From NCBI GenBank assembly GCA_052327205.1, contig CM126218.1, positions 81,096,001 to 81,160,000 on the forward strand: a DNA stretch of 64,000 nt. Reading direction: 5' to 3'. The notes under the pieces were generated by a model. That model made no database searches, was not told the DNA's origin, and worked only from the letters and a program-made list of their open reading frames with translations. Numbering within the stretch: position 1 is the stretch's first letter; every line of letters begins with the position of its first letter. Positions 24,133-62,504 of the stretch are shown here, one piece after another. This DNA comes from Somniosus microcephalus. Its lineage: Eukaryota. Both the position numbers and the translations under genes were made by a program.

Positions 24133-26085
24133 TTACATGTAGCGTGACATGAACCCAAGATCTCGGTTGAGGCCGTCCTCATGGGTGCGGAACTTGGCTA
24201 TCAGTTTCTGCTCGACAATTTTGCGTTGTCGTGAGTCTCGAAGGCCGCCTTGGAGAATGCTTACCCGAAGATCGGAGGCTGAATGTCCTTGACTGCTGAA
24301 GTGTTCCCCGACTGGGAGGGAACACTCCTGCCTGGTGATTGTTGCACGGTGTCCGTTCATCCGTTGTCGCAGTGTCTGCATGGTCTCGCCGATGTACCAT
24401 GCTCCGGGGCATCCTTTCCTGCAACGTATGAGGTAGACAACGTTGGCCGAGTCACATGAGTATGTACCATGTACCTGGTGGGTGGTGTCCTCACGTGTGA
24501 TGATGGTATCTGTGTTGATGATCTGGCATGTCTTGCAGAGGTTGCTGTGGCAGGGTTGTGTGGTGTCGTGGTCGCTGTTCTCCTGAAAGCTGGGTAATTT
24601 GCTGTGAACGATGGTCTGTTTGAGGTTAGGCGGCTGTTTGAAAGCGAGTAGTGGAGGCGTGGGGATGGACTTAGCGAGGTGTTCGTCGTCATCGATGACA
24701 TGTTGAAGGCTGCGAAGAACATGGCGTAGTTTCTCCGCTCCGGGGAAGTACTGGGCGACGAAGGGTGCTCTGTTGGTTGTGTCCCGTGTTTGTCTTCTGA
24801 GGAGGTCTATGCGATTTTTCGCTGTGGCCCGTCGGAACTGTCGATCGACGAGTCGAGCGTCATATCCCGTTCTTACAAGGGCGTCTTTCAGTGTCTGTAG
24901 GTGTCCATCGCGTTCCTCCTCGTCTGAGCAGACCCTGTGTATTCGCAGGGCTTGTCCATAGGGGATGGCTTCTTTAACGTGGTTAGGGTGGAAGCTGGAG
25001 AAGTGAAGCATCATGAGGTTGTCCGTGGGCTTGCGGTAGAGTGAAGTGCTGAGGTGTCCGTCTTTGATGGAGATTCGTGTGTCCAGGAATGAGACCGATT
25101 CTGAGGAGTAGTCCATGGTGAGTTTGATGGTGGGATGGAACTTGTTGATGTTATCGTGTAGTCTTTTCAGTGATTCTTCGCCGTGGGTCCATAGGAAGAA
25201 AATGTCGTCGATGTATCTGGTGTATAGCGTTGGTTGGAGATCCTGTGCAGCGAAGAAGTCTTGCTCGAACTTGTGCATGAAGATGTTTGCGTATTGGGGT
25301 GCGAATTTGGTCCCCATGGCTGTTCCGTGTGTTTGGGTAAAGAACTGGTTGTCGAAGGTGAAGACATTGTGGTCAAGGATGAAGCGGATGAGTTGTAGGA
25401 TGGCGTCTGGAGATTGGCTGTTGTTGGTGTTGAGTACTGAGGCTGTCGCAGCGATGCCGTCATCGTGGGGGATACTGGTGTAGAGTGCCGAGACGTCCAT
25501 CGTGGCGAGGAGTGTTCCTGGTTCAACTGATCCGTGGGTGCTGAGTTTCTGTAAGAAGTCTGTAGTGTCGCGACAGAAGCTGGGGGTTCCCTGTACGATG
25601 GGTTTCAGGATGCCCTCGACATATCCAGAGAGGTTCTCACACAGGGTTCCGTTGCCTGATGCGATAGGACGTCCAGGTGTGTTGGCTTTGTGTATCTTTG
25701 GGAGGCAGTAGAAGTCTCCCACGCGGGGAGTACGTGGGATGAGAGCATGTAGGATGCTTTGAAGGTCTGGATCGAAGGTTTTGATCAGTCTGTTGAGTTG
25801 GCGGGTGTGTTCTTTGGTCGGATCTGCGGGTAACTGTCTGTAGTGTTCCTGGTTGTCCAGTTGTCGGTATACTTCTTTGCAATAGTCCGTTCTGTTCTGT
25901 ATGACGATGGCACCTCCTTTGTCTGCTGGTTTGATGACGATGTTGCGGTTGGTCTTGAGAGCGTGGATGGCGTTGCGTTGTGCTCGGGTGACATTCTGGA
26001 CTGTCTTGTGAGTGCGGCTGATGAATCTGGCGTTGATGCATCTCCTGACAGCTTGAGCATACATGTCAAGCTTAGGGCAGCGACC
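24133..26085 (-). CDS. Penelope RT + GIY-YIG endonuclease (open frame, N-terminally truncated)
   Basis: PADKGG, LPKIHK..PGRPI, DVSALYT, GTAMG, RYIDD, FLD, VVYLIRC..YIGET..RMNGH..GLN. Confidence 0.95.
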   Translation of the reverse strand, partial: GRCPKLDMYAQAVRRCINARFISRTHKTVQNVTRAQRNAIHALKTNRNIVIKPADKGGAIVIQNRTDYCKEVYRQLDNQEHYRQLPADPTKEHTRQLNRLIKTFDPDLQSILHALIPRTPRVGDFYCLPKIHKANTPGRPIASGNGTLCENLSGYVEGILKPIVQGTPSFCRDTTDFLQKLSTHGSVEPGTLLATMDVSALYTSIPHDDGIAATASVLNTNNSQSPDAILQLIRFILDHNVFTFDNQFFTQTHGTAMGTKFAPQYANIFMHKFEQDFFAAQDLQPTLYTRYIDDIFFLWTHGEESLKRLHDNINKFHPTIKLTMDYSSESVSFLDTRISIKDGHLSTSLYRKPTDNLMMLHFSSFHPNHVKEAIPYGQALRIHRVCSDEEERDGHLQTLKDALVRTGYDARLVDRQFRRATAKNRIDLLRRQTRDTTNRAPFVAQYFPGAEKLRHVLRSLQHVIDDDEHLAKSIPTPPLLAFKQPPNLKQTIVHSKLPSFQENSDHDTTQPCHSNLCKTCQIINTDTIITREDTTHQVHGTYSCDSANVVYLIRCRKGCPGAWYIGETMQTLRQRMNGHRATITRQECSLPVGEHFSSQGHSASDLRVSILQGGLRDSRQRKIVEQKLIAKFRTHEDGLNRDLGFMSRYM

Positions 26086-27313
26086 CTCCGGAGAAGGAGC
26101 AGCGCTCCGAAAGCTTGTGATTTCAAATAAAGCTGTTGGACTATAACCTGGTGTTGTGTGACTTCTTACATTTGACCAATACTGCCACACCACCTCCTAT
26201 CTTTCCTTCCCAATCTTTCCTGAACACTTTATAACCAGGAATATTTAATACCCAATCCTGCCCTTTTTTGAGCCAGGTCTCAGTTATTGCCTCAACATCA
26301 TATTCCCATCTGGCTATTTGTGCCTGCAGTTCACTTACTTTGTTTACTACACTTCGTGCGTTCACATACATACACTGTAAACCCATCTTAGACCATCCTG
26401 TATTCTCTCTTCATTTGACCCCACCTAATACTTTACTATTTCTTACTTTAGTGCTCTCTGCCTCTCCCAATTCTTTGAGCACTTTGTTTCACCTTTCTAA
26501 TGTTACATCCTGGTGCCCATCTCCCTGCCATATTAGTTTAAACCCTCCACAACAGCACAGCAAACCTCCCCGCGAGGATATTGGTTCTGGCCCTGTTGAG
26601 GTGCAACCCGTTCGGCATGTATAGGTCCCACCTCCCCCAGAACCAGTCCCAATGCCCCAGGAATCTAAAGCCCTCCCTCCTGCACCATCTCTCCAGCCAC
26701 GCACTCATCTGCACTATCCTCCTACTTCTATACTCACTAGCACGTGGCACTGGGAGTAATCTGGAGATTACTACCTTTTGAGGTCCTGCTTTTTAATCTC
26801 TTTCCTAGCTCCCTGAAATCTGCCTGCAGGGCCTCATCCCTCTTTCTATTTATGTCGTTGGTACCGATATGGACAATGACCTCTGGCTGTTCACCCTCCC
26901 GCCTCAGAATGTTCTGCAGCCACTCGGTGACGTCCTTGACCTTGGCACCAGGGAGGCAACAAACCATCCTGGAGTCATGTCTGCGGCCGCAGAAAAGCCT
27001 GTCTGATCCCCGAACTATCAAATACCTTACCACTATTGCTTTCCCACTCTTCTTCCTCCCCCCCTGTACAGCTGAGCCACCCGTGGTGCCGCAGACTTGG
27101 CTCTGGCTGTACTCCCCAGAGGAACCATCGCCCTCGCCAGCACTCAGAACCAAATACTGGTTGGAGAGCGAGATGCACTCAGGAGACTCCTGCACGACCT
27201 GCCTGGTCCTCCTCTTCTGTCTGGTGGTCACCCATTCCCTTTCTGCCTGCACACTCTTTATCTACGGGGTGACCACCTCCTGAAACGTGCTATCCACGAA
27301 ACCCTCAGCCTCA

Positions 27314-32990: not shown

Positions 32991-33527
32991 CGAAAATGTT
33001 TTAAAAATCTACGTTAAAGACTGTAAATACAAGTTGTTGTTTTTTGTTGTTGTTTTGCAGAAGGCATTGTCCTCTTACTAAGTTACAGTTCTGCTGGTGT
33101 TGGTCACTCCCTCAATTAAATGGCCATCATTACCTTCCCCTAGGGGCATTGAGGCCACTACCACTATTCCAGCTCAGAACAGCTAATTCAGCAAAGATCG
33201 GAGCTCAGACCTGAGACATGCCTTGTCAGCTATTCATTGGTAAACTCACTGGGCCAACTGGGAACCATTTGAAATGGTTCTGTACAATATAAGCGCACCA
33301 TAAATGTCTAACTACTTGGTGGTACATTTTGTTGTGTGTATGTGTGAGCCATTTCCTTCTCTTACAGTTTGCAGGAGACCCTGTCATTTAAATCCATTTT
33401 TGACATTCACAGGTTTCAACCAGCAAACCACATTATTGTTACGAATGTCTCCTGAATCATGTTTAGTTCCTCTTTTGAATCAACTTTGGCAAAACTACTG
33501 ACAGATGAATAATGAACACTTTGACAC

Positions 33528-33782
33528 TGTAGTGTATGTACCCGTCTACCTTTAAGAGAACTATTGTATGTAACCGTTCACCTTTAAGAGAACTACTTTA
33601 GGTGTGGCACTACTTGTTTGGCTTCTGTATACTGTAATACCGACGGTGACCACACCGGTATATAAGTGTTGTGGCATGGTTCCTTGGGCAGATTCGCCCT
33701 GACCTTCGAATAGTAAAGACCTGTTTGTTTGTTATTCCTGAAGTCTGTGTCGTTATTAACTGTACAACCCACAGACTTTACA
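33528..33782 (+). repeat. 5' LTR (255 bp)
   Basis: TG..CA; 4 mismatches to the 3' LTR; ~33-bp duplication in U3; tatataa and agtaaa signals. Confidence 0.96.
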
Positions 33783-33783
33783 G

Positions 33784-33793
33784 TGGCGACGAG
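33784..33793 (+). promoter_or_regulatory. Primer-binding site, tRNA-Ser(GCU)-like
   Basis: TGGCGACGAG 1 nt after the LTR; complements a tRNA 3' end ..CUCGUCGCCA. Confidence 0.85.
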
Positions 33794-34304
33794 TCCGGCC
33801 GTACCCTGCGGCAAGACTACCAAAGCAACTAAAGAGCGTCGAAGAGAGGCAACCGCCCTCGCCGTTCTGCTGGAAGAAAACACGAGGCTGCAGCAATAGA
33901 AAGGAGGAAGACTTTAGCAACAAAAGCTTCCAGCAGCAACAGGCACTGACTACCCTTCTACCACGGTGCGGAGTGAGCCGACCAGCAGGGAGCAAGGCGG
34001 CCGAAGAGACTGTGAGTAGGGGAAGGTGTAACGAAATCCGGAGGATAAGGGCTGTGCACTCGACCACGGTCGAGGGGGAGCAGAGCTGGTCAGGAAGTCG
34101 GGTCCAACGGCGTCGTGAGATAGCCGGACCGCGATCGGCGGGAAAAGCCGGGCAGCGACCGAAGTCACGAAGCGCTGAGACCGGGAGCAAGCGCGGGAAG
34201 AGAGAAACTCAGCCGCAGCCGGGGAGGGAAGCACCGGACTGCGTGAGGGCTGGGAGGCGAACGGGAGCCGGGCGTGTGGGAGAGGCAGAGCCGACCAAAG
34301 GAGG

Positions 34305-34560
34305 CTGCGCGAGAGCCAGTCCAGCGGCTGAACTGTTCTCCACCAACGGGGTACCCAGCGCCGGTAGAGCCGAACGTGGGGGAGAGAGAGACAGAGCCAA
34401 GCAAGGGGAGAGAGACTGCGCGAGAGCCAGTCCAGCGGCTGAACTGTTCTCCGTGAACGGGGTACCCAGCGCCGGTAGAGCCGTGCGAGCGGGAGAGAAA
34501 GACAGAGCCGAGTAAGGGGAGCTGTGCGGAAGCCAGCCCAGCGGCTGAACCTGTCCGCTG
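34305..34560 (+). repeat. ~111-bp tandem repeat (~2.5 units) in the element leader
   Basis: gagagccagtccagcggctgaac at 34311 and 34422, degenerate at ~34530. Confidence 0.8.
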
Positions 34561-34775
34561 TGGGGAAAGCATACCCCTCCCACCAGGGAAGAAACACGGG
34601 AAGCCGCCATTAGGCGGAGAAGACGACAGACGTGGGAGACCGCCATTGAAGGGGCGGGGAGAGAAGGAAAGAGCGGGAAACCACAATTTTCGCGGGAAAA
34701 ACCGCCATCTTAGAAATAAATAAATAATAAATAAGAATTTAAAGAAATACTTGTGCTGCTCCCAAGGAAAGGAAG

Positions 34776-36173
34776 ATGCCTAAGCGAGGGAATATTAACG
34801 ATTTTAATTCTGAGATAGAAGACTGGGCCACGTACGTGGAATGCATCGAGATCTATTGTGAAGCCAACAAAATAGAGGAAGACGACAAAGCGATAACATT
34901 GCTAAACTCGATGGGCGCAAAGACATACGGGCTCTTGAAGCATCTACTAGCACCAGCTAAACCGGCGGATCAGACTTTCGAAGGGATTGTGGCTGTTCTG
35001 AAGGACCACTTGAACCCCACACCGTTGATGTTGGCTGAACGATTCAAATTCTATGCAAGAACGCAACGGAAAGACGAAAGCAACGCGGAATATTTGGTCG
35101 AACTGCATAGGCTAGCGAAATGCTGCCAGTTCGGAGGGAATCTGACAGAGGCACTGCGAGACAAGTTCGTATGCGGATTGTCCAAGGAAGGGACACAAAA
35201 GCGACTACTCGAAGAGAACGACCTCATACTTGACAGGGCTGTCCTTATAGCCGCATCGCACGAAGCCGCAGCGAAAGGAACGGCGGAAATGCAGCTACAG
35301 GCGGCGGCACTCGGGGTGGACCAAATTACCTCAAGTACAACAAAATGCTATCGTTGTGGGAAGACAACACACGACCAGACTCAATGCTGGTTTAAGAACC
35401 AAGAATGTAGGAAATGTGGCAAACTGGGTCACATCGCTAAGGTATGCCGGTCAGGGAAGAAGACCAACAACCAAAGGAAGCCACCACAAGAAAAGTACAA
35501 CAAGGTACACAAGGTGGCTGAGAAGAGTTCAGACGAACAGAATTCAGACTCAGACCCAAACAGCCAGGAGCTGGGTAGTCTGAGAATTCACAATGTGAGT
35601 AAGGAAGCTGACCTACAAACTATCTGGGTCATACTAAAAATAGCTATAGTCCAAGTAAGAATGGAGTTGGACACTGGATCAGCTCTATCAGTCATAAATC
35701 GAAGGGACTACCACCGGCTATTCTCTCACATCCCCTTAAGAAATACCAAGTTCGTATTGCAGACATACACGGGGCATAAGGTATACCCCATGGGGAAGAT
35801 AAGAGTCAAGGTGAGAGATAGGGGTAAAGAACACCCAAGAATGAACTTGTACGTATTATCTGAGGGAGGACCACCACTTCTAGGACGAGAGTGGATCAAG
35901 AAAATAGACATGGAATGGCACTATCTAAAAGCCATAATGAGTGAGGACTCGGTGCAAGCTATCAGCTCAGATTCTGAAACGGATGACGATAAGACCAACT
36001 CAAATATGGAAGACAAGGCTAAAATGAACTTGCCGACTATGGTGGAGAAAATGAAGACATGCATAAAGGCTTATGCTACCGAGAAGAATAAAGCTTCAGA
36101 GCAGAACTCCAGTTTGACAGAGAATTCTGAGCCTGTTCAAGTTAAGGACTTATCCACGACGGAAGAACACTGA
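34776..36173 (+). CDS. gag: Gag (two CCHC knuckles) + aspartic protease + non-pol extension
   Basis: AERFKFYAR.Q, DKFVCG..QKRLL, CYRCGKTTHDQTQC, CRKCGKLGHIAKVC, LDTGS, LLGREW. Confidence 0.95.
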   Translation: MPKRGNINDFNSEIEDWATYVECIEIYCEANKIEEDDKAITLLNSMGAKTYGLLKHLLAPAKPADQTFEGIVAVLKDHLNPTPLMLAERFKFYARTQRKDESNAEYLVELHRLAKCCQFGGNLTEALRDKFVCGLSKEGTQKRLLEENDLILDRAVLIAASHEAAAKGTAEMQLQAAALGVDQITSSTTKCYRCGKTTHDQTQCWFKNQECRKCGKLGHIAKVCRSGKKTNNQRKPPQEKYNKVHKVAEKSSDEQNSDSDPNSQELGSLRIHNVSKEADLQTIWVILKIAIVQVRMELDTGSALSVINRRDYHRLFSHIPLRNTKFVLQTYTGHKVYPMGKIRVKVRDRGKEHPRMNLYVLSEGGPPLLGREWIKKIDMEWHYLKAIMSEDSVQAISSDSETDDDKTNSNMEDKAKMNLPTMVEKMKTCIKAYATEKNKASEQNSSLTENSEPVQVKDLSTTEEH

Positions 36174-38162
36174 ACTCGGACTCAAACTTATTTCAAAGTA
36201 CGACAACAATTAGAACAGTTGAGTTACCGTCTCGTACAAGAGATGAAAACAATGGAAAAGTTCTGGGACACCGAATGGGAGAACCTGGAAAGACAGCAGA
36301 GGCAGCTAGCTCAAGCAAAGAGCGACCATAGAGCCATCGTGACCAATTACCGATCACATCTCCCTTATGATGTTCAGGAGTTAGAATATTTGCATGATCT
36401 AGAGATACAGCATAAAGGCAAACCACGCTACACTGAGGATTTTGTTCTGCAATTGGAGACGGAGCTAGTGCAAGCAAGGTTAAGAGAAGCTGAATCGCAG
36501 TGTGCACTTAAAGATATGCAGAAAAAAATCTTGGACATGGAAAAGAGAAACGCTTCTTTTCCTGATGTGAATAATGTGGCCATGTTGCAAGAGGAGCTTA
36601 TAGGGGCGAAACTGAAAGAAGCTAAGCAAAGGATGTTGGAACTTGAAACACAGAACCAAATCAGCAGTAACCAGCTATGTCGAGCAGAGAAGGAGTGCTA
36701 TGGTCTACATGAGAAGGTGCAATATCTCTCAGCCCAGAATAAGGGACTACTCACTCAGTTAAATGAAAGTAATCGGAAAATGGCTGAGATAGACTGCAGG
36801 AATAAAGAAGATTTGATGGCAGTGAGACTTCGAGAGGCAGATAGCATAGCAGCCTTGGCTGAACTCCAACAGGAAATTGCGAAAGAAGCAAATGAAGAGG
36901 AATCTTCAGGAAGCCAGGATGTTATTCCAGTTCTTCTCTACGACTCCTTACAAGCAGAGTGTGAGAAGTTGAAAGAACAGTATGAACAGGCCCAGGCTAC
37001 GATTCTGGAGGGGGTTAACTCGGCAACCTCCGAAAAGCTAGTTTCAGTAGAAGCATATGAACAACTAAAGGTTGAACATGAGCAAGAAGTCCAAAGGCTG
37101 CAGGAAATTCTTGATGAGCTCAAGGCCAAGACAGATTCATCGGTAGAAGTTCCATCCATAGATGAGAAATTAGAGGTGAAAGACATGGCAGAACATGAAA
37201 GACAAGATGTCCAAGAACTCATAAAAATATTGAAGGAAACCCAAGACAAATATGAGGCGGCAATGTCCGAGGTTCAACAACTTGAAGAACAGATTCAACT
37301 GGGAATCCTTTCAGTGGAAGAAAAGGAAACTGTAAGAAACACAGAGACTGTAAGAATGGTCCCTGAACATGAGCTAGAGAGCATCAGGGCGCAACTTTTC
37401 CGAGCGCTGAAAGCCAAAGTACAAGAGGAACAGAAGGTGGAAGCATTGGAGGAAAAGGTGGATGAAATGGAGAAGACTCTGATCCACAGTGTTCCCGTGG
37501 AAGAGTTAACGGTCAGCCAACTCCTTCATATGCTGAGGGAAAAGACTCTGCAATGGGAACAATCTGAACACGAGCTTCAATCTTCAACGGGAAGGAGTTC
37601 GGAGCTCTCAAAAGTTTGGGAAATAGCTGAGGTTGCAAAACAGACTTTACTGGGATGCCAAAAGTATGCTGAATCGCGTCTATGTGAACAACAGAATGTT
37701 GAAACAGCTGCTCCAGTAGAAGGATTGAATAGCCCGATCAATCAATCCCCGAGGGAAGGGGAAGTGTTGAAATCACAAATGAGGTCATTAGTGAAGGATT
37801 TGCAGGAAACCCAGGAAGAGCGGGATGAAGATGAATGCATGAAGAAGTCTTTTCAAGAACGATGTCTAGGGAAGGATCCACAGTCAGCTAACGTCCAGAT
37901 GGGTAAGGAGGAAGTAGAAGGCCCTCTCGCTGGCCTAACTCAGGACGAACCCAAATATTACCATGACCTGTTGAGTGACACTGAATATTACGAGGATGTG
38001 GTCTGCCCAGTTTGTGATGAAAACTCCCAAAGTGCCGAAATCAGGATGAAGCACTTAAAGTCGAAGGAACATAGAGAGTTGGTGGCGCTACAGCTGGCAG
38101 CTGATAAGGGAGCCCCGAGAGTCTCCAAAAAGCAGAAAAGAAAAAGAAGAAGCAGAAGATGA
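36174..38162 (+). CDS. Chimeric coiled-coil cargo ORF, in frame with gag-PR across a single TGA
   Basis: 36219-34776 = 1443 (multiple of 3); no other stop until 38160-38162; heptad-rich E/K/Q/L sequence ending in a zinc finger and a basic tail. Confidence 0.88.
   Translation, partial: TRTQTYFKVRQQLEQLSYRLVQEMKTMEKFWDTEWENLERQQRQLAQAKSDHRAIVTNYRSHLPYDVQELEYLHDLEIQHKGKPRYTEDFVLQLETELVQARLREAESQCALKDMQKKILDMEKRNASFPDVNNVAMLQEELIGAKLKEAKQRMLELETQNQISSNQLCRAEKECYGLHEKVQYLSAQNKGLLTQLNESNRKMAEIDCRNKEDLMAVRLREADSIAALAELQQEIAKEANEEESSGSQDVIPVLLYDSLQAECEKLKEQYEQAQATILEGVNSATSEKLVSVEAYEQLKVEHEQEVQRLQEILDELKAKTDSSVEVPSIDEKLEVKDMAEHERQDVQELIKILKETQDKYEAAMSEVQQLEEQIQLGILSVEEKETVRNTETVRMVPEHELESIRAQLFRALKAKVQEEQKVEALEEKVDEMEKTLIHSVPVEELTVSQLLHMLREKTLQWEQSEHELQSSTGRSSELSKVWEIAEVAKQTLLGCQKYAESRLCEQQNVETAAPVEGLNSPINQSPREGEVLKSQMRSLVKDLQETQEERDEDECMKKSFQERCLGKDPQSANVQMGKEEVEGPLAGLTQDEPKYYHDLLSDTEYYEDVVCPVCDENSQSAEIRMKHLKSKEHRELVALQLAADKGAPRVSKKQKRKRRSRR
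36408..36881 (+). other. EVI5: Captured EVI5 coiled-coil segment (intronless, internally deleted)
   Basis: EDFVLQLETELVQARLREAESQCALKDMQ..EKVQYLSAQNKGLLTQL..MAVRLREADSIAA closely matches the vertebrate EVI5 C-terminal half as I recall it. Confidence 0.88.
36882..37505 (+). other. Captured ANKRD24/RAI14/UACA-family coiled-coil segment
   Basis: VIPVLLYDSLQAECEKL resembles ANKRD24 VIPLALYDSLRAEFDQL; LKETQDKYEAAMSEV..QIQLG resembles RAI14-family LKETQEKYEEAMKEV..QMKLG (from memory). Confidence 0.7.
37500..37913 (+). other. OPTN: Captured optineurin-like segment
   Basis: EELTVSQLLHMLRE vs OPTN EELTVSQLLLCLRE; LKSQMRSLVKDLQE..MKKSFQERC vs LNLQVTSLFKELQE..MKKRLQEKC (from memory). Confidence 0.72.
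37974..38159 (+). other. DNAJC21: Captured DNAJC21-like C2H2 zinc finger plus basic tail
   Basis: YEDVVCPVCD..KHLKSKEHRELVAL vs YDDLYCPACD..NHEKSKKHREMVAL; SKKQKRKR vs SKKQKKKK (from memory). Confidence 0.62.
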
Positions 38163-38500
38163 TAACTATCGCAAATATTATCACTTCTACCAGATCATGC
38201 GTGGACCCTACGAAAGGAGTTAAATCAGTTGGGAAGTAGGAAAATATCAAGGCAACCCAGTTGTTGTAAAAGTCAGCACTGCTGGTTCAGCAGGACGAAA
38301 GTTCAAGCTGTTACGTCAAGAAAAGGATATGGAGGAGTCACGCTAGCAATGTGAACCATCTACACCAAAGAGATGTTGTTCGGACCGAGTCAAGATCAGA
38401 GACTGAATCTGTGAACTGTTCCCGCAGAGACTGAACCTGTGAACTGTTTCCCACCGAGACTATGTCTGTAAATTGTGTTATATGAAGTTGAAGATATGTT

Positions 38501-39197
38501 GGCCTAGAAATTGAGTTTGCGCTGCGCCGGGGCTTAACGCTGGAAATTTAGCGCCGGTGCTAAGTCACGCTGTGCGCGCCAAAAATTCAGTAGCGCCGCG
38601 CCCAAACGGCTGCCGGCGCTACTGAAGGCTGTTTGCGCCTGAAAACTGGCGCTACGCGCCGCATTGCGGCGCTATTCCGGCGCTGCGGCACCCGATGCGG
38701 TGCGGCAGGCTCGGGAAGTGCAGGCCTCCTCCTTCAGTTAAGGAGGAGCTGCCTGCACCCGCCCGCTGGCCGGTTAAATCGCCACAAAAATGAGCCCGGC
38801 ACCTCGGGGAAGTGCCGGGCTCGCAGCCGAGAAGCATCTGTTCCGCGGGGGGGGGGTGGGGGAGTCCGGGGAGGGAGGTGCGGGCAGGCGGCCGGCGGGA
38901 AAGCGGCCGGCCGCCGCTCCACCTTTATGCGCCGGCGCAAAGTCGTGTAAGACTCTGTTGCCAGAGTCTTAGTTGCGGCTGCCACGGGCGAGGCGGCCGC
39001 AACTGAATTTCGGCGCTGGGGCCCGTCACCACGGCAACCGGGACGCTGCGCACACCGATGACGTCATCGGTGCCGGCGCAGCGCTACCGGTGTAACGCCG
39101 ATGTTGGGCCCTAGTCAATTTCAAAACCGGCTGTAAGTCCAGCGCAATGCCCTCTAGCGCCGCAAAATGGGCGCTAAGCCCACTCAATTTCTAGGCC
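38501..39197. mobile_element. Harbinger-family MITE (697 bp) inserted in the LTR element 3' UTR
   Basis: TIR GGCCTAGAAATTGAGT..ACTCAATTTCTAGGCC; 3-bp TSD GTT; GC/CpG-rich. Confidence 0.92.
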
Positions 39198-39232
39198 GTT
39201 ATGTTTAATGGGGACTCTGTATGTAATAAGCT

Positions 39233-39244
39233 AAAAAGGGAGGA
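39233..39244 (+). promoter_or_regulatory. Polypurine tract
   Basis: AAAAAGGGAGGA just before the 3' LTR. Confidence 0.88.
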
Positions 39245-39245
39245 T

Positions 39246-39500
39246 TGTAGTGTATGTACCCGTCTACCTTTAAGAGAACTATTGTATGTAACCGTTCACC
39301 TTTAAGAGAACTACTTTAGGTGTGGCACTACTTGTTTGGCTTCTGTATACTGTAATACCGATGGTGACCACACCGGTATATAAGTGTTGTGGCATGATTC
39401 CTTGGGCAGATTCGCCCTGACCTTCGAATAGTAAAGACCTGTTTGTTTGTTACTCCTGAAGTCTGTGTCGTTATTAACAGTACAACCCACAGACTTTACA
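39246..39500 (+). repeat. 3' LTR (255 bp)
   Basis: Direct repeat of 33528-33782. Confidence 0.96.
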
Positions 39501-40436
39501 GACACCATTTGGGAGCACCTCAAACTTTTAGATTTCTTTCAGCGGGTTATTTTTATTAATAGGCTATATTTTGTCGGGTAGCTCTGCAGTATCTGAAGTT
39601 TTGGGTTTTCCGACTGTCGGAGTATTTGTAAGTATTCTTTTTGTTATTCGCACATCAGATTTCATAAAAGCGTATTTGCATGGCCGAACATACTTTCTTC
39701 AAATCGTTACATGTTCTCGGCTGTATTAATGTCTATACATTTTCAATTTTCTCTCCACCTCTGCTAGTGCTAGAAGCTGTCCAGTATCTGCCCAAAGTCA
39801 CCACTCTCCATGTGTGAATCTTGGCAGGAAATGTCAGCAGGTTATTCAGCCACAGAAACTATCTCAGTCGAGCCCTATCCTGTCCCCCGTCTAATATACC
39901 ACTTTGACTCCACCTTTGATCATAACAACAACAACAACTTGTATTTATATAGCCCCTTCAATGTAGTAAAGCGTCCCAAGGCGCTTCACAGGAGATCAAG
40001 AAAAAAAATCATCTCTTCTCCCGATATCCTCCTTGACATCCTGCCCTTTTGAAGCATCTTGTGATGTTTCACTATGTTAAAATGCTATAGGTATATATAT
40101 ATGTATAATAATGTGGCTGAGACTTTCCCCCCTCCCTAGTTCAGCAACACTGGGGCTAATGGTTGCACCCAGACTCCCACCCAGGCCAACTGTGCAGTCC
40201 AGGGATCAACCTGGAGCCTTCTTCATGTGTATGCTTCAGTGACACAAGGCACACTGCCTTTACCCACTGCGCCATCTGAGGGACGAGCATTCATTTAATT
40301 TTTAGTGACCAGCCATTGAGTATCTCAGGTAGGCCAGCATTTCCAATTTCACTGGCAGATCCCAGTTTTGAGCAGACACCTGATACCCTTCCCACATATC
40401 CTGCCACTCTTTTCAGCATAAATTACAATTCACATA

Positions 40437-48968: not shown

Positions 48969-49344
48969 ATATGTGCCCTGGTCTATTTGGATAGACTCTC
49001 CACACCCATTTTTTTGGGTGCAAATCAGGGGCAGGAAGGTTTAACTTTGCAGCCCAAAGGGCACCTGAAATAGATCCACGGCATTTTTAGATCAAATGAT
49101 ATCCAGGCACTCTTGCAGCTGCCTAATGCGTGTTTAAGGACACTAACCCCCCCCCTGGAAATTGGTCAGTGCTGAGTGGAGCCTGCCCCGGGGGCATTCC
49201 GCGCAGATTTCCCCTGTTCCTGCTGCAGCCTAGTCAGTGGTCCTTAAAGGGACCGCGGAAGGCCACCAACAAAGAGGTACGGTCCTTCCTTTTAACACCT
49301 TCGTGTGGGGCCAGGAGGAGCACTCTTGAAAGCCACTGCTGACT

Positions 49345-50120
49345 CGCACTCACCCGCACCCCCCATCCCATTCTCTCCCCCCACCCTCACCCCCCATCCA
49401 ATTCTCCCCCCACCACCCTCCCTCCCCATCCCATTCTCCCCCCCGCCACCACCCTCACCCCCCCACCCGCACCCCCCATCCCATTCTTTCCCCCCCACCC
49501 TCACCCCCATCCCATTCTCTCCCCCATCCCATTCTCTCCCCCCCACCCGCACCCCCATCCCATTCTCCCCCCCACCCGCACCCCCCCATCCCATTCTCCC
49601 CCCCACCACCCTCACCCGCACCCCCCATCCCATTCTCCCCCCCACCACCCTCCCTCCCCATCCCATTCTCCCCCCCGCCACCACCCTCACCCCCCATCCC
49701 ATTCTCTCCCCCCCCACCCTCACCCCATCCCATTCTCTCCCCCACCCCATTCTCTCCCCCCCACCCTCACCCCCCATCCCATTCTCTCCCTCCCACCCTC
49801 ACCCCCATCCCATTCTCTCCCCATCCCATTCTCTCCCCCCCACCCTCACCCTCACCCCCATCCCATTCTCTCTCCCCCACCCGCACCCTCATCCCATTCT
49901 CTCCCTCCCACCCTCACCCCCATCCCATTCTCTCCCCCATCCCATTCTCTCCCCCCCACCCGCACCCACCATCCCATTCTCTCCCCCCCACCCTCACCCT
50001 CACCCCCATCCCATTCTCTCTCCCCCACCCGCACCCTCATCCCATTCTCTCCCCTCTTCTCTCCCCTCCCCCACCCTCACCCCCCATCCCATTCTCCCCC
50101 CCCCACCCTCACCCCTCCTC
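49345..50120. repeat. C-rich minisatellite (cccatcccattctc-ccc-accctca units)
   Basis: More than 20 degenerate units; G-run-rich on the - strand. Confidence 0.9.
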
Positions 50121-50261
50121 CGACCCCGCCTCCCAGAACCTACCTGTGGGCTGCTGTTGGCATTGCAAGTTGGTGGGGAGCCAACCGGCGAGCTGCCTCT
50201 GGAGGCACGGTCGGCATCAGAAGCTTGCTGGAATTATGCTAACGAAGTAGCATAGTGGGTG

Positions 50262-52993: not shown

Positions 52994-53919
52994 CCCCAAT
53001 TCATGCTGGCATTCTCTTCCCACTCCCCAATTCCTGCCATTCTCTTGCCAACCTTTTCAGGTCCACTCCCAGCACCTCCCTGCTGCTTCGCAAGAGGTCA
53101 GCATCCAACTGCACACTGCGAATATAAATACCCGTCATAGAACGCAGTTCTATGAGAGGGTTAGAAAATCTAGGACAGTGATGGATGAACCTTTGACAGA
53201 AGGACTATCATGCGGAATGTGAGATAGGCTCATGGGATATGAAGTCAGTGATATTTAGGACCAGATAGAAATGATCTTTTGCTGGTCCAGTCCAGTGCTA
53301 ATAAAGACACTGGGACATATTGGGGAGGGGGTATGTGTAGTAATGCATTGTATGTAGCCATGGTTTTTGGAGCTTGCTTGATTATGAGGGTTGAGGAGTT
53401 TTCATTGAAATTGGACACAAGGGCCTAGAAATTCAGTTGGTTGCGCCAGCCGGTAATGCCATAAGAGGGGTATATTTCCAGCGCTAGGCACTTAGCGCCC
53501 GGGCGCAGACCGATCTACGCCAACGCCCAAATTCAGTTGACATTTAGCGCCGGCGCAAAGTGTTTGCGCCCGCTCAGCTGCGCGCGCAGCTTATGACGTC
53601 ATTTCGTCGTGCAACGCTGTTTGTGCGCCCAAACCGGAAATTCAGTGGCGCCCGCCCAATGTGGGCGTGGCGCTGCTAAGAACTGTGAAGTGGAACGCAA
53701 CAGAGGCCCTGCGGGCCTCGGGGAGCGCTAATTAAAGGGCACTTACACTGACCTATAAAGCCCAGCCATTTTGCTGCAATGACTTTACTGCTTTGGATTT
53801 CTGGACAGAGACCAAGGGACAGAGCTTACTGATTTGGGACAACATAGGAGAGGTATTTTTGGCTTCTGGCCAGTGCTTTGACATTTGATTCATTTGATTT
53901 CACTGTTTTCAACTTTATT

Positions 53920-55059
53920 ATGGGGGCTGTATGGGGGTCCAACCCTCAGTTGCAGCATTATGTGCGAAGGGCTCGCAGACGCTGTGAGAGAGGGCCAGCC
54001 ATGCCTAGACGCAGAGGGGCCATCAGGCGTCGGCAACGTAGGCCTTACCCACTCAGGCAATACCGGCAGCAGGTGTCCTATCTCACCATGACTGCGGCGC
54101 ATTGTGTTAAGAGGCTGCGCTTCAGAAGGGAGGTGGTTGCAGAGATCTGCCAGCTGCTTCACAGAGATCTGCGTCCACAGCTGATGTGCAGGACGACTCT
54201 CTCGGTGGAAGTGAAGGTCACGGTGGCTCTGAACTTTTATGCAAGCGGCTCCTTCCAAGCCGCTGCTGGGGACATAGCGAACATCTCCCAGTTCGCCGCG
54301 CATCGCTGCATCCGGCAGGTCACCGATGCACTTTTCGCGAGGAGACACCAATTCATCTCCTTCCCCATGACCCGACAGAGGCAGGAGCAGCGTGCAGTCG
54401 GATTTGCCAGGATCGCGCGCTTCCCCATGGTGCAGGGCGCCATTGACTGCACGCATGTGGCTGTGCGGGCACCTATCCACAATGCCGAAGATTACCGCAA
54501 CCGGAAGGGCTACCATTCCCTAAATGTACAGCTGGTGTGTGACCACAGGCAGCGCATCCTAGCTGTCAATGCCCGCTTCCCAGGAAGCAGCCACGATGCA
54601 TTTATCCTGCGCCAGACTACTGTGGCTGACATGTTCGAGGCACAGCCTCCACCAAGGGGATGGCTTATCGGGGACAAGGGCTACCCTTTGTGTACATGGC
54701 TCATGACCCCGCTCCGTGCGCCCAGGACCCCAGCGGAGGAGGCATACAACGAAAGCCATCAAGCCACAAGGAACATCATAGAGCAAACGATAGGCGTCCT
54801 CAAGCAACAGTTCCGCTGCCTGGATCGTTCTGGCGGATCTCTACAGTATTCGCCGGATAGAATCTCCCAGTTCGTCGTCGTGTGCTGCATGCTGCACAAC
54901 CTGGCTATCCGCAGGACTCAGGCACTGCCACCTGACATTGCACCACCACCTCAGGAGGACGAGCAGGAGGACCATGAGGAGGAGGAGGAGGAGGAGGAGT
55001 ACCAGCCCAGGAGGGAGCCACAAGGTCCAAGGGCCGTCCGCCGGGGGCTTATTGATTGA
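53920..55059 (+). CDS. Harbinger DDE transposase (stop 3 codons early relative to copy 2)
   Basis: GAIDCTHV, YRNRKGYHSLNVQLVCD, PGSSHDAFI, LIGDKGY, EQTIGVLK, CCMLHNL; CGA->TGA at the end. Confidence 0.95.
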   Translation: MGAVWGSNPQLQHYVRRARRRCERGPAMPRRRGAIRRRQRRPYPLRQYRQQVSYLTMTAAHCVKRLRFRREVVAEICQLLHRDLRPQLMCRTTLSVEVKVTVALNFYASGSFQAAAGDIANISQFAAHRCIRQVTDALFARRHQFISFPMTRQRQEQRAVGFARIARFPMVQGAIDCTHVAVRAPIHNAEDYRNRKGYHSLNVQLVCDHRQRILAVNARFPGSSHDAFILRQTTVADMFEAQPPPRGWLIGDKGYPLCTWLMTPLRAPRTPAEEAYNESHQATRNIIEQTIGVLKQQFRCLDRSGGSLQYSPDRISQFVVVCCMLHNLAIRRTQALPPDIAPPPQEDEQEDHEEEEEEEEYQPRREPQGPRAVRRGLID

Positions 55060-55477
55060 CACTTCTAGGCCCCCTGTCAGGGAATGGGCTGTGGCAATGA
55101 ACGCACCTGAAGGCAGCCGCACCGCAAGCCCTCAGCCGGTTAACGCAACAACCACTTGAAACCTGAGACGTGGACATGCTGAATAAATAAAAAGCTTTAT
55201 TTCACAAACTCAGGGCCCTTCCCACATGAAACAGAAAAACAGACAAGACCCCCAAAAAACAGTCAAAAACATCTGTCACTCCCAAAACCTGGGGAGGACT
55301 AACAAAACTTGCCCATCCAAATGGCCTTCATCATCGGCCTTACAAAAATAAGCCCCCCCCTCCACAACACAAACACCCCCATAAAAACAAAAAATGCCTT
55401 GATCCTCGGCCTTACCAAAATAATGCCCCCCCAGAACACAAGCCCCCCAATATAAAAAAAACCGCTATCACCACACT

Positions 55478-57487
55478 CTAATGGGTGTGCCGAGAGGGCG
55501 AGTCCTTAGACAGGCTTCTCTGGCCCCTGCCCGACCTGCTGCTCCGCCTCAACCTGGGCCCTGCACGTGTGGCAAGGCTGGGGGAAGGCTCATGAGGGCC
55601 ACAATGCGTGTCGGCAGATGCCCTTGGGGGTCGGCCTAGACGAGGCCCAGCCCGGGAGGGGCCGGCTGCTGACTGCTGCAGCTGTGGCTGGCCAGCATCA
55701 GTCTCAGCAGCAGCTCGTCGCACCTTGGCTGGGGGAGTGGCAGTGTCGGCTGCACCAATGGGGGCAAGCTGGCTGATGGCAGGCGCGCGCTGCTCGCCAG
55801 AGACACTGGCACTCGGCCGGGCTGGCAGTGCAGCAAGCGCAGCAATCTGGTGGAGGCCAGACCGCTGTGCTGCAGCAGGGCGGCGGGTGCCCTGGCGATG
55901 CTTCCGCGCCACAGCAAGTGTGGCAGAAGTGAGTGCCCAAACTGCCCTGGTATGTGCCCGCATCAGCTCTGCCAGTGTCTGGACGGCACCACTCATCTCG
56001 TGAGTCGCGTCCTGGGCTGCCGCGAGTTGCTGGACACCCCTGTCGTGCGCTGCCGCGAGTTGTTCGACCCCCCTGGCCTGTGATTCCCCGAAAGCGACCA
56101 CACTATGAGCCAGGGACTCAATGGCCTGAGGCATCTGTTGCACAACCCCCATGAATTCCTGGTGGCGCCGCTCAGACACCGCCGACATCTCATCGAGGAG
56201 GCGCACCTCCTGGGCGAGGACCGTCTCCGGACTGGAGGGCGGACTCTCCCTCTGGGGAGAAGGCCGCCGAGCTGCCCGACCCTTCCCGCGTGCCTCGAGC
56301 CCACTGGACCCAGGATCTGCCCTCCCCTGCAACACCTCCCCCCTCTGGGGAGAAGGCCGGCGTGCTGCCGGACCCTTCCCGCGTGCCTCGAGCCCACTGG
56401 GCCCAGGATCTGCCCTCCCCTGCAACATTTCCCCCTGGCTCTCCTGCAGGCCAGACGTCTCCCCTCCATTGCCATCCCCTGGCGCGGATGAGGGTTCCCC
56501 CGATGTGCCGCCTTCCTCCTGGTCCTCGTCGTCCTCCTCCTCCAAGGGCCTGGCACTCTGAGCTTCAGGGACCACCTCCTCCTCACCAGCTGAAAGCAGG
56601 AAGGCACAAGAGTAGCTTTAGAGTGAGGACAGGGCGTCAGCGAGGGAGGCCTGAGTGGTGGCATTATGCGCATTTGTCGGTCAGTGCGAAAGGATGTAGA
56701 TCTGAAGCGCAAGGGCAACGACAGAGGTCCAACCGGTCATGTCCTTACCAGTGGGTCCCAGTACAGGGTCCGCATCTCCGATCGCAACAGGGCCAGTCAC
56801 CCGGGCACGCATGAGTCGAGCCACGCTCTCCTCCAGCTCACTGAGCGGCTGGTACTGGGGACGGCCTCCCCCGGTGGCAGACTGGCTCCTCAAATTCTGC
56901 GCCAGCTTGGCCTGCAAGAGAAAGGACGGCCTCTAAGTACAGTGTGGTGCCCTGTTGCTGTGTGCACTGCCTCCCATGGTCGAATAGCTTGGCCAGTGTG
57001 GTGCCCTGTTGCTGTGTGCACTCCCTCCCATGGTCGAATAGCTTGGCCAGTGTGGTGCCCTGTTGCTGTGTGCACTGCCTCCCATGGTCGAATAGCTTGG
57101 CCAGTGTGGTAAGTGCAGAAAGTGCTATTGATGATCATGCCAGTGCCATTGCTGCGGGAGGAGGGCTGCCCATCAGTCCTTTGAGGTCCCTTTGCCCATA
57201 ATGTGAGGTGCACATGCAAGGATGAGGAGGACACTGGAAAGGGTACTCACCTTCACCATCCGAGTGAGGTCGTTGTACTTCTTGCGGCATTGGTCCGCAA
57301 TCCTGGGGACATCGCAGGTGGATGACACCCTGCGGGCGATTTTCCTCCAGGCTTTCCTGTACCGGCTCCTGGGAGCCTTCTTGCCACTGTCCGGGCACAA
57401 GATCTCTCTTTTGTTTTCGACACCATTAATCAGCACCCTCAGAGCATGCTCTGAGAAGCACTGCGCTCGTTCACAGGCCCTCTCCAT
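55478..57487 (-). CDS. Harbinger Myb/SANT-like DNA-binding protein; 3 exons (57487-57251, 56911-56749, 56589-55478), ~503 aa
   Basis: FS..L.VLI..V..KREIL..AW.KIA..V..R.ADQC.KKYNDL trihelix; TGGG motif; GT/AG junctions keep frame (phases 0 and 1). Confidence 0.85.
56941..57102. repeat. 54-bp tandem repeat x3 in the Myb gene intron
   Basis: agtgtggtgccctgttgctgtgtgcact..cgaatagcttggcc, three times with no spacers. Confidence 0.9.
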
Positions 57488-58279
57488 GGCTCCAGGCGCT
57501 ATTTTGGCCCACCAGCAGTGTTGAGGCCTAGCTGCAGGGCTCCAGTATGCAGGGCGTGGCAGCAGTCAAAGTCGACCCTTCCCCCTTTAAGAGCTGGCCG
57601 GCGTCAGGGTGTCTGCTGTCAATCAAAACATGACCGCACCTGCGCTGCGCCCGGCCTCGGCGTTATCGGGCTGCATCGCCGGCTTAGCGCCTGAAGAGAG
57701 CATTGCAACGCCAGTTTCAGCGCTCAGCCAAACTCTTGGCCAACTCTACTGAATTTCAGCGATGTGGCCTACACTTTCCGGCGGGCGCTAACTTTAGCGA
57801 ACGCCCGACTTTAGCGCCCCAAAAGTGTCCAGACTGAATTTCTAGGCCAAGTTTTTTTCCTTTTTTTTTGGCACCCTACGGGTTAACATTAAGAAGGTGC
57901 TGCATAAGATGGCATCATCTGGTAGATAGAGTAAGTATTGATGGGTCTGATGGTCCTTCTCCCCTCTCACATGTTTGCAACCACATGGACTTCCTGTTTA
58001 TTCAGCGGAGTATGACCTAACTGATTCATCCGACAACCTAGTTAACCAGTCAAAAGTTTTAAGCACAAAGTAAAAACAGTTGTAGATTTGTAGGATCAAT
58101 TCAGTTTTCTTACTGAAGTCATATTGAAAAGGTGTGTTGTACAGTTGGCTCCCTGGATTCCTTCAGTGGTGTATAATGGATGAGAGACACACTTTTTGCA
58201 TCAGTTGAGCATAACTCTTATTGTATTTGATAGAATTAACTACTCAAGTAAGTGTGAAACTTACGACCTTGTATAGAAA

Positions 58280-59065: not shown

Positions 59066-61013
59066 TTGCCCGCTTGAATTGCAGTATAGCTAGGGTGACA
59101 TTTGCAAAATGGGAATCCCCTCAAGTATGTATGTATAAAATGATAGTGAATTAAAGCATTGATTTTTTAAATTACAAATACATTGGTTATTCAGTGTATT
59201 CAAGTGCTGCCCAGATTTTTATGTCAGGTTTGCTCTTTGGCCAGCCCTTGACCATGGACAGACAGATCTAATGTAATGTATGTCCGACTTACGGGGGCCT
59301 GTTCTTTTTGGGAATATCCCGGTGCTGCTGCAGCCGGATGGTAGTCGGGACAGGATCTTTGTTTGCAGTCGGTCGGTTCCTCTCCGAACATCTGGCCCTG
59401 CTCCCGATCCTTATCTTTCTATATTAAAAATAAAGCTGCATCTTGTAAATGTGATCTTGGCCGGCAGGGCTGTGTGCCTGTGATCTGAAAGCAATGGTCA
59501 TTCAAAACTCCAAGGCCTTCTTTACATTTTAAATCCTTGTCTTACTTTCTCTGCAAGTCACTGTTTATGGCTCGTAAGTGAAGATTATAACGTGAGAGAG
59601 CAGTTGCAACATGATCAAGAAAGGTTTCAAAAGTGAGATAAACCAGTTATATCAGTCAGTATATCCAGTCTTGCCGTGACACAAGGCCCTGCGCTTTTCC
59701 GCCTCCAACTCCTGCTGTGGGCGGGCGCATTGCGGCCGCTACTGGCCCCTTCAGTCTTCTCCCCTCCCGCCTTCTCCTCTTCTTCCTGCAGGGAAGGGAA
59801 TTGTAAGAAATAGCTGTTAGATTCAAAGATGGGTTTTAATTCTTAGACCAGGGATTGACAACAGGCAAGTGGAAAAAGATAGCATAAATGCCAGCAAGGT
59901 CGAATATCAAGCATCAAAAGACAAATAGAAATGATAAGGGAATGGTAAAATGCAAGGAAACAGGGAGGATAGCACCTGCTAGATAACAAGGAGCCACGAA
60001 GCCATAAAATGCCCTTGAAGAATCTTGACAAAACACTCCTCAGAAAGATAAGAGGGAGGCCTTGTACAATAGGATGGGGATCAAATTGTGTGTTTCTGTT
60101 GATTAAATGTGCTTGCCACCAGGCTGCTGCTGCCCCGTGGGCAAGACGCCTTGCTGGTCGCCGCAGACCATTTTTACATCTTAAAGGGGCATGTTATATT
60201 TAGTTGCTAGATTGTTTTGTACCTTTTTACTTTTTAATTTTTACCTGAATGTATTTTTCAAAGCCATAAGCTGAGGGGAGCTCCTCCCACTTTTTAAGAT
60301 GCACTAATTAATTTAAGGCCATGAAATCAATTAACTTATTAAAACCAGGCTTTTACTGTGGCCACGTAAAATCCTGGTTGATGTAAATTTCTGCAGAGCC
60401 ACTGATCCGGACAGTGGCAAAACACAGCAATGATTGATTATATTTTTAATCTGACTCTTTATTTTTATGATTCAATTTTTGAAAGAATCAAAGGGGGGAG
60501 TGTTAGGGAATATAGGCCTAGAAATTCAGTTGCGTTCGCCAGCCGTTAGCGCCTTAGGAGGAGTAGATCTCGAGCGCTAGGCACTTAGCGGCCGACGCAG
60601 AACGATTTGCGCCTACGCCCAACTTCAGTAGACATTTAGCACCGGCGCAAAGTGTTTGCGCGCGCTCAGCTGCGCGCGCAACTTATGACGTCATTTCGTC
60701 GTGCAACGCCCTTTGTGCGCCCCAAACCGGAACTTCAGTCGCGCCCGCCCAATGTGGGCGTGGCGGTGTTAAGAACTGTGAAGTGGAACGCAGCAGAGGC
60801 CCTGCGGGCCTCGGGAAGCGCTAATTAAAGGGCACTTAGACTGAACTATAAAGGCCAGCCATTTTGCTGCAATGACTTTAGTGCAACGGATTTCTGGACA
60901 GAGACCAAGGAAGACACCTTACTGATTTGGCCCAACATAGGAGAGGTATTTTTGGCTTCTGGCCAGAGCTTGGAAATTTGACTCATTGTGATTTCACTGT
61001 TTGCAAGTATATT

Positions 61014-62165: not shown

Positions 62166-62504
62166 GCCCCCTGTCAGGGAATGGCTTGCGGCAATGAACG
62201 CACATGAATGCAGCCGCTCCGCAAGCCCTCAGCCGGTTAACGCAACAACCACTTGAAACATCACACATGGACAAGCTGAATAAAGAAAAAGCTTTATTGA
62301 ACAAACTCAGGGCCCTTCCCACATGAAACCGAAAAACAGACAACACCCCCAAAAAACACTCAAATACATATCTCACTCCCACAACCTGGGGAGGAATAAC
62401 AAAACTTGTCCATCCAAATGGCCTTCATCCTCGGCCTTACCAAAAGAACCCCCCCCATAGACAAGACAACCACCCCCATATAAAAAAACATTTGCCAACA
62501 CACT

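Follow-up and report, generated by a model that had tools for sequence, protein, structure and literature searches.

Acutely transforming (gag-onc) retroviruses are helper-dependent and carry host sequence that was fused to gag by recombination during reverse transcription. In animals, long terminal repeat (LTR)-mediated retroposition places partial host RNAs between LTRs through switches at microsimilarity and produces two-gene chimeras, and the resulting retrocopies re-transpose as non-autonomous elements; the word "circular" does not occur in that report (Tan et al. 2016, PMC5131818). The maize LTR element Bs1 is described as combining pieces of three cellular genes in a hybrid open reading frame (ORF), with one fragment out of frame and 1-5 copies (PMC5131818, PMC5408686), and TR-GAG elements, defined in plants, as LTRs with GAG and an aspartic protease only, without reverse transcriptase (RT) (PMC6022998). 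Pseudogenes derived from circular RNAs (circRNAs), such as those of mouse circRFWD2, number 33 high-confidence copies with LTR-rich flanks, and their mechanism is called mysterious in the paper that first reported such pseudogenes (PMC4897178, Dong et al. 2016). Here, we describe an element at positions 33528-39500 (the window copy) of a 64-kb stretch (the window) within a 6.4-Gb genome (G000), the nearest protein matches of the stretch in protein searches being those of sharks and rays. It is a non-autonomous Gypsy LTR retrotransposon that carries host pieces in one frame with gag and protease.

The shark family resembles LTR-mediated retroposition in template-switch capture, which would use microsimilarity, in chimera formation and in non-autonomous spread (PMC5131818). 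It differs in that five or more sources continue the frame of a Gag-protease that is itself constrained, in its thousands of copies and in two apparently circular templates. Like Bs1, it is an LTR element with cellular-gene fragments in a hybrid ORF; unlike Bs1, it resides in a vertebrate, has approximately 4,000 copies and presents staged intermediates and back-spliced pieces. It shares with the circRNA-derived pseudogenes of PMC4897178 the fixation of back-splice junctions in DNA, whereas here the presumed circles lie within the coding frame of an LTR element, an empty precursor is extant and one circle appears to have been copied exactly once. The gag-protease-only plan, together with many recent dispersed insertions, is that of TR-GAG elements (PMC6022998), to which the shark family adds 740 in-frame codons and host cargo. 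In contrast to the gag-onc retroviruses, the family has no env, no signalling domain and unconstrained coiled coils, and it spreads by germline copy number rather than by infection. Each ingredient has a precedent, and for the union of copy number, intermediates and a one-round circle we found none in the literature searched. A preliminary description of this DNA, made from its letters, had known of no account of such a composite; likewise, none emerged from the titles and abstract openings searched, with subscription journals, repeat databases and supplements lying outside that scope.

The window copy has the TG...CA LTR pair and target-site duplication of a Gypsy element, a primer-binding site (PBS)-like motif and a polypurine tract (PPT)-like motif at the expected places, and a knuckle-bearing gag followed by a protease (Table 1). 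The preliminary description was correct on these cis elements (255-nt LTRs with 4 mismatches, GACAC on both sides), on gag and protease, which show two CCHC knuckles and a DTG motif, and on the missing pol enzymes. The Pfam matches of gag and protease (E 0.0005-0.005) were just under the Pfam cut-offs, and in a Pfam search neither ORF of the window copy matched a family of RT, RNase H or integrase, so that the enzymes of an autonomous element are not encoded. A DNA search yielded 4,173 candidates, and all 40 scored matches were at 99-100% identity, on many contigs. Further stretches read from G000 are labelled L065, L067, L070/L071, L072/L073 and L074; we call the focal form subfamily A, and L067, L070/L071 and L072/L073 represent subfamilies B, C and E, respectively, each known from one copy, with C and E read only in part.

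The preliminary description had counted approximately 740 further codons in the same frame as gag; the cargo is indeed in that frame, but a stop codon at 36171-36173 of the window copy had been passed over. This stop occurs in 1 of 58 young copies, counted after the removal of two duplicate loci, and in the older copy L067; given its rarity among copies, we rejected programmed read-through at 36171. Among the 29 young copies that were covered in full, 13 are open over 1,128 codons and 16 are broken. With a stop in the window copy and neutral private changes in 30 young copies, the element does not behave, in these few of its thousands of loci, as a domesticated retrogene (Bs1-like or a Gag-derived host gene) that host selection keeps open.

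Protein searches matched three parts of the cargo to EVI5 (best E 2.4e-70; two pieces at 84-86% identity), to an ankycorbin/ANKRD24-like protein (best E 3.3e-83; 171 of 221 residues identical to a shark protein) and to OPTN (best E 1.2e-26). A fifth host source, 5' of the ANKRD24-like piece, is identified by its profile score as a PKK coiled coil of the SLK/STK10 family, SLK and STK10 being undistinguished (PF12474, with a cut-off of 25 bits; L067 scores 28.4 and L071 scores 62.8). Three of the four genes named in the preliminary description were thereby borne out; DNAJC21, the fourth, had no database match, and SLK/STK10 had been missed. Its picture of consecutive gene fragments did not hold, for EVI5 is nested within the ANKRD24-like sequence and each of the two shows circular permutation. 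None of the TBC, ankyrin, kinase and UBAN domains is present in the captured pieces; indeed, the catalytic and globular domains of the donors are all absent from the cargo. A single-sequence structure model is almost wholly long helix, at low confidence (pLDDT 53.8), and the PDB held no relative of the cargo and none of the linker.

The zinc finger retains all four metal ligands and scores 13.6 bits against zf-C2H2_jaz in the window copy and 36.3 bits in subfamily E (cut-off 22.6), the finger of L072 being much more canonical. DNAJC21 is a likely name for its source, proposed from a motif: it was matched neither in protein searches nor in Atlas or the PDB, and no host locus was found. The best Atlas score, 0.88, gave leads only, and the best PDB match (E 0.011) was a double-stranded RNA-binding finger, neither of which named a gene. 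A first degenerate motif had no match in the genome; a degenerate motif that we take to represent DNAJC21 occurred at 540 genomic places, against 0 for the control, and one of these is the sister copy L072. A locus found through PF21884, presumably DNAJC2, was rejected as a source since 20 kb downstream of it lacked a matching finger. For U1, the acidic segment after the protease, a profile-free library search gave one repeat-rich chance match, and Atlas and Pfam gave none; in subfamily C, U1 starts at the point where a related Gypsy family enters its RT linker.

The circular permutation of two pieces is the central observation. The ANKRD24-like piece opens with the last codons of one host exon followed by the whole penultimate exon, and the 6.7-kb intron between them is gone (LA/QA join), as expected of an intronless partial host RNA between LTRs. 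In the genome (L067, L065), the penultimate exon has the donor GTTCAG/gt, and the large exon, with the acceptor ttttcag/GAG, lies much earlier in the gene. The element joins the late donor GTTCAG directly to the first base of the earlier exon; because a late donor is joined to an early acceptor, this junction is a back-splice. It was found at 4,022 genomic places with at most two mismatches, against 0 for the control. Six codons into the large exon, the EVI5 piece opens with the terminal 16 nt of an exon. The donor of that exon, ATACAG/GT, has a single genomic match. From there the piece jumps back to the start of an earlier exon, the acceptor of which is deduced from annotated isoforms, in which three alternative exon ends occur upstream. 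The piece ends at the host base that immediately precedes its start base. The unit measures 678 nt in three shark isoforms, and 192 nt of it were later deleted in frame. L067 is without exactly the remaining 486 nt and has no other loss at the site, and the EVI5-empty joint was seen in all four sequencing runs examined.

Both genes thus contribute a non-colinear join at exact exon ends, as in circRNA-derived retrocopies. From the sequence, the ANKRD24-like and EVI5 pieces are best understood as copies of circRNAs, and the EVI5 piece as one whole circle, with entry and exit apparently at neighbouring bases of the host sequence and nothing lost at the insertion site. On this reading, the family would show directly that an LTR element can retropose circRNAs. 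We hold the anatomy, that is, the family, its five sources and its two back-splice junctions, with high confidence. The preliminary description had viewed the templates as captured mRNAs; it missed that two were circular, and it missed the thousands of copies. In RNA data, reads from the element mimic a back-splice junction. Separately, one annotated EVI5 isoform joins the EVI5 donor used here back to an earlier exon, a hint that in another vertebrate EVI5 RNA may be circular or exon-repeated.

The surviving subfamilies allow the order of events to be read. Subfamily C has the protease, a native linker, a longer U1, a longer SLK/STK10 piece, a long OPTN piece (77% over 186 residues) and an in-frame pol-like tail, and has no finger; E adds a host-like finger; B has the ANKRD24-like circle and the finger and no EVI5; and A adds EVI5. 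The survival of EVI5-less copies and earlier cargo sets supports serial capture, read directly from these sequences. At three junctions there are in-frame microhomologies of 6-8 nt, two of which were judged against sister copies as host proxies, and the earlier proposal of serial mRNA capture by RT template switching gains from both observations. Where EVI5 was entered, the closest microhomology lies one base out of register; through the join that was used, EVI5 stays in its own frame. The C-termini also changed: C and E end in RVRKRRRR.RRD, and A and B end earlier, in SKKQKRKRRSRR, a tail that arose by a 32-nt deletion relative to the sister subfamily whose frame continues into the pol-like tail. 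Both translated ends are poly-basic, but they are different stretches in different frames. A marker base was present in 56 of 58 EVI5-bearing loci and, by hand count, in approximately 55 of the first 100 listed of the 4,022 places, which suggests that about half of these places may be form A. Two further forms were observed. At 37503, the SLK/STK10 piece is joined directly and in frame to OPTN (366 reads in run X23; present in X4), and a more diverged EVI5-less form retains the ANKRD24-like back-splice join at 36365-36890, with many substitutions.

Selection was estimated separately for each part of the ORF as omega (dN/dS, the ratio of non-synonymous to synonymous rates) under a pairwise codon model; counting methods were concordant, with sensitivity to the transition ratio. 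For gag plus protease, the values indicate purifying selection (omega 0.12-0.36, p at most 0.0006). Constraint is also seen on the zinc finger plus basic tail (omega 0.21-0.23, p 0.0002-0.007, four non-independent pairs). U1 gave values of 0.51-0.58 that were not significant, and the coiled-coil cargo gave 0.71-0.90 in six pairs, none distinguishable from 1. Between the window copy and L067, 29 of 34 indels in the non-coding parts are non-triplet, and only one of three in the cargo shifts the frame, where 16-20 would be expected after dS scaling (P at most 3e-6). All 12 small read-derived indels that were displayed lay outside the ORF, with 24 others of that set not displayed. In OPTN, a compensated shift of 20 nt and 1 nt leaves a 14-codon stretch read in a foreign frame, so the frame was kept even where the peptide was not. 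These results support the view that the open frame is kept by selection. Private changes in the 30 young copies are near neutral, stops included, which indicates that single insertions decay and that constraint acts on the replicating lineage.

The preliminary description had argued for selection on a new element-encoded protein; this is supported for the frame and for the finger and tail, and not for the coiled coils. The dN/dS near 1 that it had named as telling against its proposal is found in the coiled coils, so that its own refuting condition applies in part. Its suggestion of a trafficking adaptor or autophagy decoy built on EVI5 and OPTN biology is not supported: the coiled coils drift, and the TBC and UBAN domains were among those left behind.

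Evidence of expression came from raw RNA reads placed on the element (runs X23 and X24, both of one organism), and the family is transcribed. There were 30,174 reads in X23 and 25,174 in X24, and all 30 bins were covered, with the read depth over EVI5 at approximately one third of its flanks. First mates in X23 fell mostly on the minus strand over the ORF (190-980 vs 7-99), which would denote sense RNA if the library was stranded in the usual way. Because a deletion form inside the EVI5 piece was seen in RNA, EVI5-bearing elements are transcribed; this further form, an in-frame deletion of 150 nt at 36600-36751, had 56 and 52 reads in the two RNA runs and low depth in X1. At least half of the sampled words of the cargo were present in sequencing runs of three organisms.

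A loose end from the RNA reads matched 19,054 genomic places and belongs to a related Gypsy family transcribed in the same runs. RT is absent from the focal family. In subfamily C, both the end of the protease and the linker can be aligned with this related family. The one copy of it that was read (L074) continues into the protease-RT (PR-RT) linker, with E 0.004 against the PR-RT linker of a window Gypsy element and E 9e-9 against the native linker of subfamily C, and these alignments place the capture breakpoint at the start of RT. The window Gypsy element used to place the PR-RT linker is a separate one on the minus strand at 1-2154, with gag, protease and an open RT region. The 19,054-place family is a candidate helper.

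We favour, at a probability of roughly 0.55, a selfish helper-dependent lineage that is selected for Gag-protease and for an unbroken frame reaching an RNA-binding or targeting end at the C-terminus, while the coiled coils act as a spacer. The element would make its own Gag-protease and borrow RT and integrase from a pol-bearing relative. Within shared particles, RT may switch repeatedly onto co-packaged host RNAs and back; SLK/STK10 and OPTN were probably captured first, then the DNAJC21-like finger and the ANKRD24-like circRNA in either order, and EVI5 last. RNase H would destroy the circle behind RT and thereby force it to switch back at the point of entry, which would give exactly one round. 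Selection would act on the replicating lineage and not on single insertions. The finger and basic tail would most likely form an RNA-binding or nuclear-targeting end that helps the polyprotein to package or route its own RNA in cis, and the coiled coils would chiefly provide a soluble spacer free of stops, in which the identity of the residues counts for little. More speculatively, and at less than even odds, circRNAs could be routine passengers and templates in Gypsy particles, copied once by virtue of RNase H; the finger and tail could confer a cis advantage over the helper; and the family could represent a replacement of pol from host exons that is still assembling and expressed in several related species.

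Several observations weigh against this selfish-lineage reading. The polyprotein beyond the protease is predicted from sequence. The low omega of the finger and tail comes from approximately 10 synonymous and 10 non-synonymous differences and reflects a higher dS rather than a lower dN, and the finger has drifted from its family model, from 36.3 to 13.6 bits. The frame test is a single pairwise comparison, of the window copy with L067. Strands are mixed in X24, with no clear bias, and 18,922 of the 30,174 X23 reads are only 90-95% alike to the window copy, which suggests that most come from other subfamilies or a related species, with host mRNAs also contributing. The candidate helper is proposed from one 157-nt stretch of one copy. 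Finally, the CAG at the ANKRD24 back-splice joint is also a microhomology, so that a switch on partly spliced pre-mRNA is possible there.

The selfish lineage and the four alternatives that we considered are not all mutually exclusive. Perhaps the open frame alone matters, with ribosomes near the 3' end averting nonsense-mediated decay or keeping the RNA packageable, and the cargo peptide and tail have no function. The coiled coils, with an omega of 0.71-0.90 that is indistinguishable from 1, the 14 tolerated foreign-frame codons of OPTN and the tolerated in-frame deletions (192, 150, 48 and 18 nt) all fit such a view; yet the finger and tail have an omega of 0.21-0.23 and four kept metal ligands, a basic end is present again after the terminal frameshift, and the focal subfamily expanded despite a shortened ORF and a lengthened 3' untranslated region (UTR) relative to C and E. 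We regard it as rather unlikely. That the coiled coils instead oligomerize Gag-protease, replacing the lost dimer contacts of RT and integrase and tuning protease activation or particle assembly, in line with the scaffold idea of the preliminary description, would explain why four of the five named captures are coiled-coil with no catalytic or globular domain retained, and agrees with the nearly all-helical structure model (pLDDT 53.8). A leucine zipper placed next to the HIV-1 protease enhances its activation (PMC5899837), and PMC11998509 offered nothing further on this analogy. An omega near 1 in the coiled-coil segments speaks against such a scaffold, and codon-periodic, purine-rich microhomologies alone can favour in-frame capture of coiled-coil RNA; we consider it improbable.

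The non-colinear junctions could alternatively stem from linear templates, that is, from trans-spliced or exon-repeated RNAs or from tandem exon duplications. Among 77 annotated isoform ends of EVI5, one is joined non-colinearly to an earlier exon, and PMC4897178 notes other origins for such junctions. However, entry and exit at adjacent bases and exactly one exon-bounded unit are expected of a circle and not of a longer linear repeat, two independent genes have the pattern, and the EVI5 donor motif is single-copy, which makes a linear origin very unlikely. We give still less credence to the idea that the family works for the host, either by supplying small RNAs or dominant-negative fragments against EVI5, OPTN, SLK or the ANKRD24-like gene or by restraining the pol-bearing family. 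Thousands of transcribed copies that carry host-like sequence (96% identity), and X24 reads on both strands, would suit such a service, but single insertions decay neutrally, with private stops and 16 of 29 copies broken, and constraint on the replicating lineage is the signature of selfish selection.

Table 1. Coordinates of the window copy and its cargo within the 64-kb window.
Feature	Position	Strand	Remarks
5' target-site duplication GACAC	33523..33527	.	repeated at 39501-39505
5' LTR, 255 nt, TG...CA	33528..33782	+	251/255 identical to 3' LTR
PBS-like motif TGGCGACGAG	33784..33793	+	position and motif only, follows 5' LTR
5' UTR	33794..34775	+	short internal repeats; many non-triplet indels between subfamilies
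gag	34776..35585	+	start ATG 34776; CCHC knuckles at codons 191 and 211
Aspartic protease	35586..35939	+	DTG at 35670
U1, acidic low-complexity, ~74 codons	35940..36161	+	follows protease; no source matched
SLK/STK10 PKK coiled-coil piece	36162..36308	+	Pfam PF12474
Premature stop, this copy	36171..36173	+	1/58 young copies, also L067
ANKRD24/ankycorbin-like piece a	36303..36394	+	exon end, whole penultimate exon, putative back-splice 36377/36378, large-exon start
EVI5, putative circle, one full round	36395..36880	+	putative back-splice 36410/36411; 192 of 678 nt deleted near 36612
ANKRD24/ankycorbin-like piece b, large exon	36881..37506	+	601/626 nt identical to host exon at G000:C13
OPTN coiled-coil piece	37500..37913	+	compensated 20+1 nt frameshift near 37647-37686
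Acidic linker and C2H2 (JAZ-type) zinc finger, DNAJC21-like	37914..38090	+	Pfam zf-C2H2_jaz
Basic C-terminal tail SKKQKRKRRSRR and stop	38091..38162	+	terminal end of ORF
3' UTR	38163..39245	+	homologous to pol-like tail still translated in subfamilies C and E
Miniature inverted-repeat transposable element (MITE), ~700 nt, GTT duplication	38498..39200	.	ends match presumed Harbinger-like elements at 53422-57848 and from 60515
Polypurine tract (PPT-like)	39233..39244	+	precedes 3' LTR
3' LTR	39246..39500	+	4 differences from 5' LTR over 255 nt
3' target-site duplication GACAC	39501..39505	.	matches 5' side

Some neighbouring features and individual copies deserve mention. By a motif check, the MITE in the 3' UTR is present in 2 of 30 copies. 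Its ends match those of two DNA transposons in tandem at 53422-57848 and 60515-64000, which we take to be Harbinger-like and which have transposase-like ORFs (53848-55059 and 60882-62165) and a second ORF with 93-nt repeats. On the minus strand at 24133-26196, a 687-codon ORF presumably represents a Penelope-type RT with a GIY-YIG end, and at 49300-50250 there is a tandem array, rich in C and very strongly GC-skewed, whose units measure 14-37 nt. Elsewhere in the genome, the older EVI5-less copy L067 (771-5662, G000:C13, minus strand) lies antisense inside the host ANKRD24-like gene, in the same intron whose splice join the element carries (target-site duplication CTCAC; LTRs 251/255 identical). 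Two identical-looking copies, L033 and L034 (G000:C1:56140697 and 56146010), are 5.3 kb apart; a tandem pair with a shared LTR, or else a local duplication, is the probable explanation.

In studies of shark genomes and circRNAs, thousands of copies of this family will be mistaken for "retrogenes" of EVI5, OPTN, SLK and ANKRD24 and will give rise to false back-splice reads. The family itself offers a staged fossil series of exon shuffling in one coding frame, in which the frame, the ends and the middle can be tested separately for selection. Its geometry of one exact round predicts an RNase H mechanism that is testable. The route from circRNA to DNA was left open by PMC4897178; here, the apparent product lies inside the LTR element that would have made it, beside an empty precursor. 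If our reading of the two junctions is correct, the family shows how circRNAs can be written back into the genome.

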